From IMG/VR virus record IMGVR_UViG_3300045988_132327, positions 1 to 58,193 of that record: a DNA stretch of 58,193 bases. One strand, 5' to 3'. Position 1 is the stretch's first letter. Each line of letters starts with the position of its first letter. The translations under genes and the position numbers were made by a program. This stretch comes from a virus (taxonomy: Duplodnaviria; Heunggongvirae; Uroviricota; Caudoviricetes). Positions 23,620 through 24,843 of the stretch are shown here, piece by piece. Under the pieces are notes generated by a model. That model ran no database searches and was not told the origin of the DNA. It worked only from the letters and a program-made list of their open reading frames with translations.

Positions 23620-24843
23620 TTATTTCCCATAAAGATCTTCTACGCCCCCATTCTTCTTGTCCCATTCGTTAGCCCACACCCGGCAGGCATCAATAATTTC
23701 TTGACGACGGTCGCCCTGCATAAAGGGGATGCTTTCATGAAAACTACTTGGGATACAGGCCACGCTGAATACGGTATCAAACGCAGTCTGTTTGATAGCT
23801 TCCAACGTCTCTGGGCGCATTTTCAATTCATCGATCGGCGCATCCTTAGAGTCCATAATCCGGCGATGCAGGCGCGGGAAATCAGTCTCCAGGTACGCCA
23901 TAATTTTATCTGCGAGACATTCGTCTATGTCGGTATTCCAGTCCTTTTCGAAGCCCGGCAGGCGATAGTAAAGCGGCGTTCCCCATACCGATGGGATCAC
24001 ATCCATCGTTAACAGGCGATTAGTTCTGATTTGTTGATGGTAATTAGCCGTCAGCAGTGCTTCGCCACGCTGCCCAGTTTCCGCAACCAGGCCGTGCGGA
24101 TACTCATGGATGTAGGCAATGGCATCCCTTCCATCATACATAAGTGGAAATGTCTCTGGTCTTTGTCCCATGCCACAAGCACGGTTCAGATCGTGACCAA
24201 GCTGTGAGCACTCTCGCTTTAATGTTTCGATAATGCTCTGCGCTGTAGCCAACTTTTTACGCAGTGTGACGCCTTCGCCTTGATAATCAATGCATTGCTG
24301 ATTGAGCTTGGTTAAACGCTCTTTTAGTTCCCGGCGCTCTCTTTTCAGCGTGCGGTTATCCTTCTCCGCAACATCCAGCCGCTTTGTCAGGCTGGGCGGA
24401 TAGTCTTTTTTGTAACGGTTCAAATCGGCTTCGGCAGATTTACGCAGTGTATTTGCCTGTTCAAGACGCGCTTCCAGATTGCCGATCTCATTACGCATAT
24501 TCGCGGCAAATTGATTAACTGCATCGCCCAGGCTTTCAACTGTCGCTGATACGCCTGTGACTTGTGAAAAACGGATCAAGCCATCATTAACGGCTTGTTG
24601 GTATTCCTCAAACTGATCCACCAGCTTATTGTAATCAACTGCCCCATCATCAAGCAGCTTGTTGATTTCCGCCACCAGGTTATCTGTAGTGGCAATGACA
24701 CTCTCGTGCAGTCGCTTTGACAGGTCATCACCCGGATTCCGTTTCTGTATAAGAGCGATTTGTGTGCGCAGCGTTTCAATTGCTGTCGAGATAATTTCCA
24801 GATTAGAAGTATCAGTGTGTTGACTCATTGCTGTTCCCGTCAC
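23620..24843 (-). CDS. orphan coiled-coil protein of unknown function
   Basis: 407 aa; N-terminal approximately 200 aa heptad-rich, C-terminal globular domain without recognisable motifs; own operator-like promoter region and flanking terminator. Confidence 0.55.
   Translation of the reverse strand: MTGTAMSQHTDTSNLEIISTAIETLRTQIALIQKRNPGDDLSKRLHESVIATTDNLVAEINKLLDDGAVDYNKLVDQFEEYQQAVNDGLIRFSQVTGVSATVESLGDAVNQFAANMRNEIGNLEARLEQANTLRKSAEADLNRYKKDYPPSLTKRLDVAEKDNRTLKRERRELKERLTKLNQQCIDYQGEGVTLRKKLATAQSIIETLKRECSQLGHDLNRACGMGQRPETFPLMYDGRDAIAYIHEYPHGLVAETGQRGEALLTANYHQQIRTNRLLTMDVIPSVWGTPLYYRLPGFEKDWNTDIDECLADKIMAYLETDFPRLHRRIMDSKDAPIDELKMRPETLEAIKQTAFDTVFSVACIPSSFHESIPFMQGDRRQEIIDACRVWANEWDKKNGGVEDLYGK

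Follow-up and report, generated by a model that had tools for sequence, protein, structure and literature searches.

pmgS of a D6-like phage-plasmid: a putative coiled-coil adaptor gene with a candidate C1-type operator

The open reading frame (ORF) at positions 23620..24843 of a 58,193-nucleotide viral sequence (the whole stretch of DNA that was analyzed, referred to here as the window) is, by full-length homology and by gene order, pmgS of a D6-like phage-plasmid in the P1 supercluster. We consider it probable, with some reserve, that pmgS is a D6/P1-type early gene under a C1-type operator and that its product is a putative, dispensable coiled-coil adaptor, neither a prohead scaffold nor a defense protein of the lysogen.

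Identity, neighborhood, and conservation of pmgS

The ORF list confirms the 407-aa frame on the minus strand (23620..24843), with a GTG start, that the initial annotation had described. An ATG at 24828, which would give 402 aa, is the likelier start over the GTG at 24843, because GGGA is located 6 nt upstream of it, the representative (P0001) of a 922-member protein cluster is 402 aa in length, and homologues start with MSQ or MNQ. The gene is not an orphan, as had been claimed, but rather D6 gene 9 and a homologue of P1 pmgS, and it is already catalogued in GenBank and PHROGs. The window DNA is ∼96% identical to Escherichia phage D6 over 2 kb. At the protein level, identity to the D6 gene 9 product (ASR76320.1, MF356679) is 98.5%; the D6 gene has the same neighbors and the same flanking motifs, and its product differs by point changes only, with the GenBank start placed at the GTG (407 aa). 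The window protein matches PHROG 1660, “PmgS-like” (E = 2.1e-145), with residues 6-406 aligned to positions 1-404 of the 405-position profile. P1 PmgS (YP_006559, 420 aa), which belongs to the same PHROG, is homologous over its full length and has motifs in common with the window protein (end-to-end BLASTP alignment, residues 1-400, E = 3e-14), although identity is just 21%.

The gene and the units upstream of it, where pmgS follows pmgR as in P1, are as follows.

25962..25935, minus strand: promoter-like site at pmgM (promoter scan)
25913..25891, minus strand: copy of the operator-like motif at pmgM (motif scan)
25453..25947, minus strand: pmgM homologue, a VRR-NUC nuclease gene and the first gene of the upstream unit (57% identity to P1 PmgM; Pfam VRR_NUC)
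24942..25256, minus strand: pmgR homologue (D6 orf10), whose product has an additional hydrophobic tail at the C terminus (BLASTP to P1 PmgR, 33% identity over 61 aa, E = 1e-6)
23620..24828, minus strand: pmgS-family coding sequence, 402 aa from the ATG at 24828 (stop codon, 23620..23622)

The pmgR homologue matches phrog_9115 and phrog_3177 and, in the alignment, has the motif S..YLGKM[ST][DE] in common with P1 PmgR. The P1 order pmgM (VRR-NUC)-pmgR-pmgS is kept in the window, which contradicts the earlier statement that the region has no counterpart in P1, and the order pmgM … pmgR-pmgS is also found in D6 and in the distant relatives L006 and L010 (the L006 relative is 24% identical). The gene had been placed between a tRNA island and the VRR-NUC gene; four tRNAs (20147..22380) do lie on one side and the nuclease gene on the other, but the pmgR homologue and D6 orf11 intervene before the latter.

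A survey of related phage-plasmids, which had been proposed as a check, recovered relatives in 143 plasmid records. These plasmids (142 non-mobilizable; mostly 74-95 kb among the records listed) come from Escherichia, Salmonella, Citrobacter, Vibrio, Shigella, and Pantoea. Other relatives adjoin genes for DNA methylases, TrfA, RdgC, PadR, and an integrase. Among 77 P1-like phage-plasmids, pmgS is one of 21 “extremely conserved” genes (PMC9603915). It is thus a conserved backbone gene rather than variable cargo.

Genetic data from P1 indicate that the gene is dispensable there. P1 pmgS was scored as non-essential by CRISPRi, with an EOP of 1.2, in a table that also cites a deletion survey in which it was non-essential (PMC10695390), and an in-frame ΔpmgS strain is part of a P1 deletion library, in the study of which essentiality was confined to pmgA, B, C, G, and R (PMC9024508). 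In P1 plaque assays, small defects in burst size or in the ratio of head sizes would go unnoticed. Since P1 forms plaques without its homologue, the earlier term “accessory” is reasonable in a loose sense.

Predicted protein architecture and the scaffold label

The AlphaFold model of the window protein has a mean pLDDT of 84, and the C-terminal half alone reaches 92. Three regions can be distinguished.

24178..24807, minus strand: coiled-coil half, aa 8-217, four long helices (8-30, 35-91, 100-142, and 145-217; AlphaFold2 secondary structure)
23839..24177, minus strand: α/β domain, aa 218-330, four β-strands and two helices, without a confident fold match
23623..23838, minus strand: acidic (HhH)2 domain similar to the C-terminal domain of RNA polymerase α (αCTD), aa 331-402, then a conserved W389..NG tail

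The N-terminal ∼200-aa coiled coil and globular C-terminal half described initially are borne out by the model, in which ∼210 aa form the four long helices and the remainder is globular. P1 PmgS has the same architecture, with a coiled coil, an α/β domain, and a degenerate acidic HhH tail. Remote homology searching and structure prediction, suggested earlier for the C-terminal half, yielded a five-helix (HhH)2 fold at aa 331-402 but left the α/β domain, whose family-conserved residues are G219, HxQIRT, W282-G-x-P-x-Y, WN, P318, and R323, without a confident assignment.

The sequence likeness to αCTD emerges at the level of the family. PF03118 and PF14520 are matched by 5/38 and 8/38 relatives, respectively (best E, 5e-7 and 8e-7), with no sequence match for the window protein alone; the family profile gave an HhH/αCTD match against the PDB, and one relative (H34) bears the PGAP name “RNA polymerase subunit alpha C-terminal domain-containing.” The window protein is not part of an RNA polymerase subunit, and its domain is acidic (pI 4.8). 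At the αCTD positions that we take to be R265 and N268 in Escherichia coli numbering, an alignment via the relative P0023 places Glu340 and Glu343, and the hairpin reads PFMQGD instead of the αCTD pattern G-hydrophobic-G (G-I/L-G). By alignment, the DNA-contact determinants of αCTD are absent from the window domain. The other (HhH)2 modules considered for comparison were the Rad51 N-terminal domain and the acidic repeats of NusA; the latter, which bind protein, are nearer in charge to the window domain than is the DNA-binding αCTD. The relative P0023 itself keeps the Arg/Asn αCTD signature.

Foldseek comparison of the window protein with the PDB gave no match at an E value of ≤0.001, short superpositions on αCTD and RAD51 being the only useful ones, and nothing significant was found in a viral fold search (BFVD). 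Searching with a profile built from C-terminal halves (alignment A5) recovered only the close, already known clade and no farther relatives. No enzymatic, toxin, or membrane domain was detected in the window protein. Matches to SMC, Rad50, JetC, DivIVA, and ERM proteins (Pfam, NCBIfam, and PADLOC) were far under the cutoffs and reflect coiled-coil composition, and matches of the C-terminal 81 aa to thymidylate synthase (E = 0.3-0.9) were attributed to chance.

The elongated, helical architecture invites comparison with phage scaffolding proteins (P22 gp8, φ29 gp7, T4 gp22, and λ Nu3), which are likewise highly helical and possess a small C-terminal helical domain. Known scaffolds bind the coat protein via a C-terminal helix-turn-helix, as in P22 gp8. 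In this reading, PmgS would be a prohead scaffolding protein or assembly chaperone, a coiled-coil dimer whose C-terminal helical module binds the capsid protein, and it would guide head assembly or the choice of head size before departing or being degraded. The GenBank label of the D6 gene, “putative prohead scaffolding protein,” was given by specialists in capsid assembly, and the PHROG name, “PmgS-like head morphogenesis,” is loosely in line with it. The conserved pairing with pmgR points in the same direction, because deletion of pmgR in P1 leaves heads and tails unjoined. P1 also has two head sizes, which are modulated by the extra internal proteins DarA/Hdf, and an auxiliary, dispensable size factor is therefore conceivable.

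The genetics and the gene location nevertheless argue against a scaffold. P1 pmgS is non-essential both by deletion and by CRISPRi, and the capsid proteins of P1 and D6 have their own cleaved N-terminal scaffold domain of ∼120 aa (the D6 capsid protein is of the same length, with an …MFE|S site at residues 121/122); P1 is described as having no separate scaffold. In the window, protease and portal genes lie at ∼37.0-39.7 kb, and in D6 the capsid gene lies at 52.4-54.1 kb, whereas pmgS (23.6-24.8 kb) is ∼12 kb from the protease and portal genes, outside the late operons and among repressor-controlled units, with a putative repressor operator and no late-promoter box. The evidence assembled here thus gives no sign of late regulation. 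The PmgS-like gene of Vibrio phage douglas 12A4 is surrounded by early and replication genes; ∼25 kb separate it from a terminase-portal-capsid module, which is complete and includes a gene of its own at the scaffold position. No PHROG or Pfam scaffold family matched the window protein, no scaffold appeared among the fold matches, and the name “pmg” was assigned as a putative function only. Because P1 with pmgS deleted or knocked down shows no plaque defect and P1-type capsid proteins bring their own scaffold domain, the label “prohead scaffolding protein” for D6 gene 9 is doubtful. We regard a scaffold or assembly chaperone as unlikely, while a morphogenetic helper role for PmgS is possible.

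Control region of pmgS and the operator-like motif

The transcription signals around pmgS are the following.

24900..24935, minus strand: intrinsic terminator at the end of the pmgM-orf11-pmgR unit, insulating pmgS from it (stem, 24935..24910)
24868..24873, minus strand: candidate −10 hexamer TAAAAT, assigned from sequence, one base upstream of the operator core, with a weak −35 (TTCCGA)
24848..24870, minus strand: operator-like copy ahead of pmgS (AATATGTTAGAAAACTAATTTAA), its end 20 nt from the ATG; corresponds in position to P1 OpmgRa/b (Op86)
23599..23621, minus strand: operator-like copy overlapping the pmgS stop codon (31.5 bits); the −35 of the next promoter follows 14 nt downstream
23557..23585, minus strand: σ70-like promoter of the downstream unit, TTGATT-17-TAGAAT (promoter scan)
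23443..23465, minus strand: second operator-like copy of the downstream unit (25.4 bits)
22847..22864, minus strand: first intrinsic terminator downstream of pmgS, GCCCATCTTCGGGTGGGC then TTTTTT

The upstream terminator noted initially is present, with a stem of 10 pairs (5 G-C), a 6-nt loop, and a T tract. The pmgS promoter was not called in a consensus promoter scan and is weak by that standard. The gene had been described as monocistronic, which fits its 5′ side, where it has its own terminator-insulated control region, but not its 3′ side, where no terminator follows the stop codon until 22864..22847. Read-through probably extends no farther than that terminator, which closes a ∼0.7-kb unit without an evident ORF, in which no Rfam RNA family was found. 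In P1, pmgR and pmgS abut and are co-transcribed in an operon under the C1 operators Op86a/b, whereas in the D6-like window they are split by a terminator and a separate candidate operator and promoter. Downstream, P1 has pap, whereas the window has the tRNA-operon control region directly after pmgS.

Two motif copies do follow the pmgS stop codon, at 23621..23599 (touching it) and 23465..23443, but they do not bracket pmgS functionally. We infer that they regulate the next promoter (23585..23557) rather than pmgS, because they flank that promoter, ahead of the tRNAs. In P1, the corresponding place before the tRNA/tci operon is taken by Oban (Op72).

The motif spans 23 bp (consensus, aaTATGTTAGAAAAyTAATtt) and has ten strong copies in the window. 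A PWM scan of the window returned 10 sites of >20 bits. Each falls between genes or at the 5′ end of a gene, among them the position 10 nt ahead of the c1 ATG and that ∼75-115 nt ahead of the lpa ATG. Just upstream of the pmgS start, the exact 16-mer TATGTTAGAAAACTAA (24853..24868) has exact repeats at 866..881 and 14217..14232, with 0 expected. The 15-mer core has 12 matches at ≤3 mismatches versus 1.8 expected, a number reached by 0/100 shuffles. Some copies form inverted pairs (846..883 and 18692..18725).

Copies are found ahead of c1, lpa, repL, icd/ant, pmgM, pmgS, and the tRNA operon. Because these are the genes at which P1 has its C1-repressor operators, the motif is most likely the operator of the D6-type C1 repressor. 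The initial proposal of an operator-like motif copy in the pmgS promoter region is, by this analogy, supported. The P1 operators (17-bp asymmetric ATTGCTCTAATAAATTT; Op51, 53, 72, 82/83, 86, 94, and 99) are also dispersed single or paired asymmetric sites at the same set of genes, and Op86 is annotated with “controls expression of pmgR and pmgS.” Their sequence differs from the window motif (TGTTAGAAAAyTAAT), and the likeness to ATTGCTCTAATAAATTT is limited to a TCTAA core in common with the reverse complement of the motif. The repressors differ as well: the window c1 ORF (14247..15284, 345 aa) encodes a weak homologue, 20% identical to P1 C1. A search for the motif in the distant relatives L006 and L010 gave nothing above chance. 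A different, TTATAAC-like box is seen at the same positions in L006, by eye only.

The putative operator bears on the earlier suggestion of a single-gene accessory or abortive-infection function, by which PmgS would be a defense protein (abortive infection or superinfection exclusion) made by the plasmid prophage. Such a function would suit a gene that is transcribed separately under its own control region, is dispensable for P1 lytic growth, and lies in a region that also houses the anti-restriction genes darB and ulx. However, the putative repressor operator on the pmgS promoter implies that the gene is off in the lysogen, a poor fit with an exclusion or abortive-infection gene expressed from the prophage. 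PADLOC defense models gave only weak matches (≤22 bits), to the coiled-coil arms of JetC and LmuB, which amount to coiled-coil noise, and conservation across the P1 supercluster and beyond (PMC9603915) is that of a backbone gene. We consider a defense function improbable.

The motif contains a short inverted repeat, TTAG-N4-CTAA, often adjoined by a TAnnnT hexamer, and P1 late promoters likewise have a small palindrome upstream of the −10; read as a late-promoter (Lpa activator) box instead of a repressor operator, it would make pmgS a late gene. This reading was rejected as highly improbable, given that the units with a copy ahead of them are not the structural operons but c1, lpa, repL, icd/ant, and the tRNA operon, which in P1 are the classic early and immunity units under C1 control, and that Lpa activation of its own gene and of the repressor gene from such a box would be unusual. 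No copy precedes the portal/protease, lysis, tail-fiber, or ddrB operons, which have a different box, AATCACAAACTGA, in common. This candidate late box, together with a −10, is found before the late operons of portal, lydA, and R; pmgS has no copy upstream. For the P1 late box AAGTNACTT, the window shows no enrichment (2 matches versus 0.75 expected).

Proposed role of PmgS and its significance

In the explanation that we favor, pmgS follows a pmgM-orf11-pmgR unit ending in a strong terminator and is read from a short 5′ region with one copy of the 23-bp motif. By positional analogy with P1, this copy would serve as an operator of the D6-type C1 repressor. If so, pmgS would be silent in the plasmid prophage and switched on directly once repression lifts, as an early repressor-controlled gene and not as an Lpa-dependent late gene. 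As a best guess, PmgS is probably a dimeric coiled-coil adaptor, with its helical N-terminal ∼210 aa, α/β domain, and (HhH)2 module; the C-terminal module may bind a protein partner or, with lower probability, nucleic acid in early lytic development, in a role that would be helpful but dispensable.

A more specific version, which we offer tentatively and think rather unlikely, is that PmgS proteins are early effectors mimicking the RNA polymerase αCTD, with the acidic (HhH)2 domain serving as decoy or adaptor while a dimeric coiled-coil stalk holds it. Its targets would then be factors that dock on αCTD or on NusA-type repeats (activators, NusA, or a phage protein), and host or phage transcription would be re-tuned right after derepression, an effect invisible in standard plaque assays.

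D6-like phage-plasmids such as this one are common in Enterobacteria, and with the gene already in GenBank and PHROGs, the impact on the field is small. In public databases, the names “prohead scaffolding protein” and “head morphogenesis” have no evidential backing and are at odds with P1 genetics and with the gene location. The motif census provides a candidate operator map for the D6-type repressor, along with a candidate late-promoter box. The αCTD-like (HhH)2 domain found in the family offers a concrete handle on the partners of a conserved backbone gene of P1-type phage-plasmids.

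The pmgS locus and its relatives

The gene at 23620..24843 is already known, as is the phage type to which it belongs, and the observation that drew attention to it is real. The initial annotation's sequence-level description of the locus was accurate: the ORF, the upstream terminator, the recurring motif with two copies after the stop codon, and the tRNA and VRR-NUC flanks are all present.

Features of the pmgS locus
23620..24843, minus strand: pmgS-family ORF, 407 aa from a GTG in the ORF listing
24935..24910, minus strand: intrinsic terminator upstream of pmgS, stem of 10 pairs, then a T tract
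25453..25947, minus strand: VRR-NUC gene (pmgM), upstream of pmgS
20147..22380, minus strand (same as pmgS): four tRNA genes, downstream of pmgS

The ATG at 24828 is a likelier start than the GTG: GGGA lies 6 nt upstream of the ATG, and only AT-rich sequence precedes the GTG. The representative of a 922-member cluster is 402 aa long, and homologues begin with MSQ, MNQ, or MSS.

The gene had been considered an orphan, a view that database comparison overturned. Over the 2-kb region, identity to Escherichia phage D6 is 95.9%, and the protein is 98.5% identical to the product of D6 gene 9, annotated as [quoted passage not shown] The protein matches PHROG 1660 ("PmgS-like head morphogenesis") end to end (E 2e-145) and aligns with P1 PmgS over its whole length (21% identity, E 3e-14). 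A tblastn search found PmgS in 143 plasmid records from Escherichia, Salmonella, Citrobacter, Vibrio, Shigella, Pantoea, and other genera; all but one (142/143) are non-mobilizable, and the plasmids in the records listed are mostly 74 to 95 kb. When 1.8 billion cluster representatives were scanned exhaustively with HMMER, 47 related clusters were retrieved, with proteins mostly of ∼400 aa, and pmgS is among the 21 "extremely conserved" genes of P1-like phage-plasmids (PMC9603915). One related protein, P0015 from Shigella flexneri (449 aa), has 17% of PmgS in common at 97% identity and matches Pfam PF21446 elsewhere; it is probably a disrupted or fused PmgS copy.

The region had also been described as lacking a P1 counterpart, a claim that gene order refutes. 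Two ORFs separate pmgS from the VRR-NUC gene, namely D6 orf11 and a homologue of pmgR (33% identical to P1 PmgR over 61 aa), and the VRR-NUC gene is pmgM (57% identity to the P1 gene). The P1 gene order pmgM ... pmgR-pmgS is therefore kept.

Several features of neighboring regions were also recorded. The pmgR homologue (24942..25256, minus strand) has a C-terminal hydrophobic, transmembrane-like tail (LLSLLQWAIVPVFIAYLIY), which is absent from P1 PmgR, present in the PmgR relative of the distant D6-like relative L006, and odd for a protein implicated in P1 head completion. According to ARAGORN and Rfam, the four tRNAs are all encoded on the minus strand: Arg-TCT, Thr-TGT, Ser-TGA, and one with a CAT anticodon, possibly Ile2-like, as is P1 trnI. 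In the D6 GenBank record, three are entered on the plus strand, labeled Asn, Thr, and Ser; the strand and one of the identities in this public annotation look wrong. The segment 20228..21455 fails to align to D6, which has tciA/tciB there; it codes for a 275-aa lipoprotein (phrog_200; read as SPFH/band-7-like) and a 78-aa membrane protein (phrog_1130), and an STnc100-like RNA at 21455..21575 scored below threshold (41.7 bits versus a gathering score of 47). Two large stretches, 2220..8045 and 39776..42500, have little or no match to D6, which suggests cargo or variable regions of the phage-plasmid.

A putative D6-type C1 operator and the transcription of pmgS

The exact 16-mer TATGTTAGAAAACTAA at 24853..24868 recurs at 866..881 and 14217..14232, with an expectation of 0. 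Allowing ≤3 mismatches, its 15-mer core has 12 matches versus 1.8 expected, a number reached in 0/100 shuffles. With a weight matrix derived from the motif sites, ten strong sites at 22 to 32 bits stand apart from background; they were placed by mapping onto the D6 annotation.

Motif sites in the window
14215..14237: 10 nt upstream of the ATG of c1 (14247..15284, weak P1 C1 homologue)
18692..18714: upstream of lpa (Pfam BPP1_LPA), with an inverted partial partner
36999..37021: upstream of repL
35794..35816: upstream of icd/ant
25891..25913, minus strand: 5′ end of pmgM, directly downstream of a good σ70-like promoter (25962..25935)
24848..24870: upstream of pmgS
23599..23621 and 23443..23465: between pmgS and the tRNAs
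861..883: with an inverted partner
12814..12836

According to the P1 annotation, experimentally defined C1 operators occupy the matching gene positions in P1: Op99 (c1), Op94 (lpa), Op53 (kilA-repL), Op51 (c4-icd-ant), Op82/83 (pmgL/M), Op86a/b, which "controls expression of pmgR and pmgS," and Op72 (ban), which precedes the tRNA/tci operon. "Operator-like" was thus an apt description, and because of these shared positions we propose that the motif is the operator of a D6-type C1 repressor, although its reverse complement has only a TCTAA core in common with the P1 C1 consensus. The pmgM copy falls inside the annotated 5′ end of the ORF (TTG start at 25947); with no close in-frame ATG or GTG further in, the true start and leader are uncertain. 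In L006, whose PmgS is only 24% identical, the TGTTAGAAAA motif is absent, and a TTATAAC-like box, identified by eye only, occurs at equivalent places up- and downstream of pmgS and upstream of lpa (regions 7880..8005, 9420..9880, and 11700..11965). Such an exchange of boxes would be consistent with co-variation of operator and repressor.

Motif copies are absent from the portal/protease, lydA, R-S-U, and ddrB operons. What these structural operons have in common is a different box, AATCACAAACTGA, with a −10-like hexamer after it.

Sites of AATCACAAACTGA or near variants of it, with a TAnnnT hexamer after the box (minus strand)
39763..39775: upstream of the portal operon
47661..47673: upstream of the lydA operon
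54679..54691: upstream of the tail-fiber R operon
about 43900: upstream of the ddrB operon

The pattern is not significant by count alone (4 versus 1.9 expected). Distinct from the P1 late box, AAGTNACTT, the box is a reasonable candidate for an Lpa-dependent late promoter of the D6 type.

On its 5′ side, pmgS is insulated by the terminator. In P1, pmgR and pmgS abut and are served by one Op86-controlled promoter, whereas in the window the terminator splits pmgS off. Its own promoter is weak relative to consensus (TAAAAT at 24873..24868, 1 base upstream of the operator core; the −35 is poor) and was not called by the promoter scan. The gene had been described as monocistronic, which holds insofar as no further protein gene is evident; on the 3′ side, however, the terminator search gave none before 22864..22847, so read-through past the stop for about 750 nt is possible. 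The two motif copies after the stop (23621..23599 and 23465..23443) are present as reported but belong with the next promoter rather than with pmgS: they flank a σ70-like promoter, TTGATT-17-TAGAAT (23585..23557, minus strand). This promoter, the operator copies on both sides, and the strong terminator at 22864..22847 delimit a unit of ∼0.7 kb (22847..23621, minus strand), in which no convincing ORF and no Rfam match were found. Since it occupies the same place as the P1 Oban/dicF-like region, ahead of the tRNAs, it may be an unrecognized regulatory RNA or leader.

Protein architecture and possible function

AlphaFold2, using a 45-sequence alignment, modeled PmgS with a mean pLDDT of 84: helices at residues 8 to 30, 35 to 91, 100 to 142, and 145 to 217; a four-stranded β unit plus two helices at residues 226 to 329; and a small helical domain at residues 339 to 393. 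Both structure prediction and remote homology had been proposed for the C-terminal half; the first gave this modeled domain, and sequence comparison backs it at the family level through matches to the RNA polymerase α C-terminal domain (αCTD) and helix-hairpin-helix (HhH) domains. A profile of 38 relatives matches αCTD, the Rad51 N-terminal domain, and Brr2 HhH (E 1e-5 to 1e-3), and Pfam reports HHH_5 in 8/38 and RNA_pol_A_CTD in 5/38. The tail of the related protein P0023 (PLSEL-NLSTRTANTL...GCG) alone matches Thermus αCTD (E 5e-4), and PGAP names one relative an αCTD-containing protein. The window PmgS tail, searched alone, gave no sequence match, but the model suggests that it keeps an αCTD-like fold. 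By alignment, the positions of the DNA-contacting Arg265 and Asn268 of αCTD are Glu, and the relatives' K-G-I/M-G is PFMQGD; the domain has a pI of 4.8. With the fold kept and the DNA-contact residues replaced, the canonical αCTD mode of DNA binding is probably not retained, and protein docking is at least as likely a role.

Public names make PmgS a head morphogenesis or scaffolding protein, a function for which we found no evidence. The P1 "pmg" stands for "putative morphogenetic function" and nothing more. An in-frame ΔpmgS is in the P1 knockout library, where only pmgA, B, C, G, and R are essential (PMC9024508), and CRISPRi of P1 pmgS gave an EOP of 1.2, scored as non-essential, in agreement with a deletion survey cited in the same table (PMC10695390). 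PmgS goes unmentioned in the main text of the paper on the P1 virion proteome. According to two structural studies, P1 lacks a separate scaffold; that role falls to the N-terminal ∼120 aa of its capsid protein, which are cleaved off, with help from DarA/Hdf. The D6 capsid protein equals that of P1 in length, with AMFE/SVAQ at residues 121/122. Gene context also argues against a scaffold: pmgS is surrounded by early units under repressor control, and 12 kb separates it from the protease and portal genes. The homologue in Vibrio phage douglas 12A4 is the first gene of a small operon that also encodes a DNA methyltransferase. Ant, DnaC, and RdgC-type genes lie next to this operon, and the complete terminase-portal-capsid module, with a gene of its own at the scaffold position, is ∼25 kb away; further relatives adjoin DNA methylase, TrfA, RdgC, PadR, and integrase genes. 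The abortive-infection function suggested in the initial annotation is unlikely, since pmgS is a backbone gene rather than cargo, is probably repressed in the lysogen, and has no match among defense models.

We tentatively favor an early, repressor-controlled, elongated, and probably dimeric adaptor, whose αCTD-like module might dock a partner as the phage turns to lytic growth and which might be beneficial yet dispensable in the laboratory; confidence in this mechanism is low. The remaining value of the analysis is twofold: it corrects the scaffold label, and the αCTD-like domain offers a clue to what this conserved but unexplained phage-plasmid gene does.
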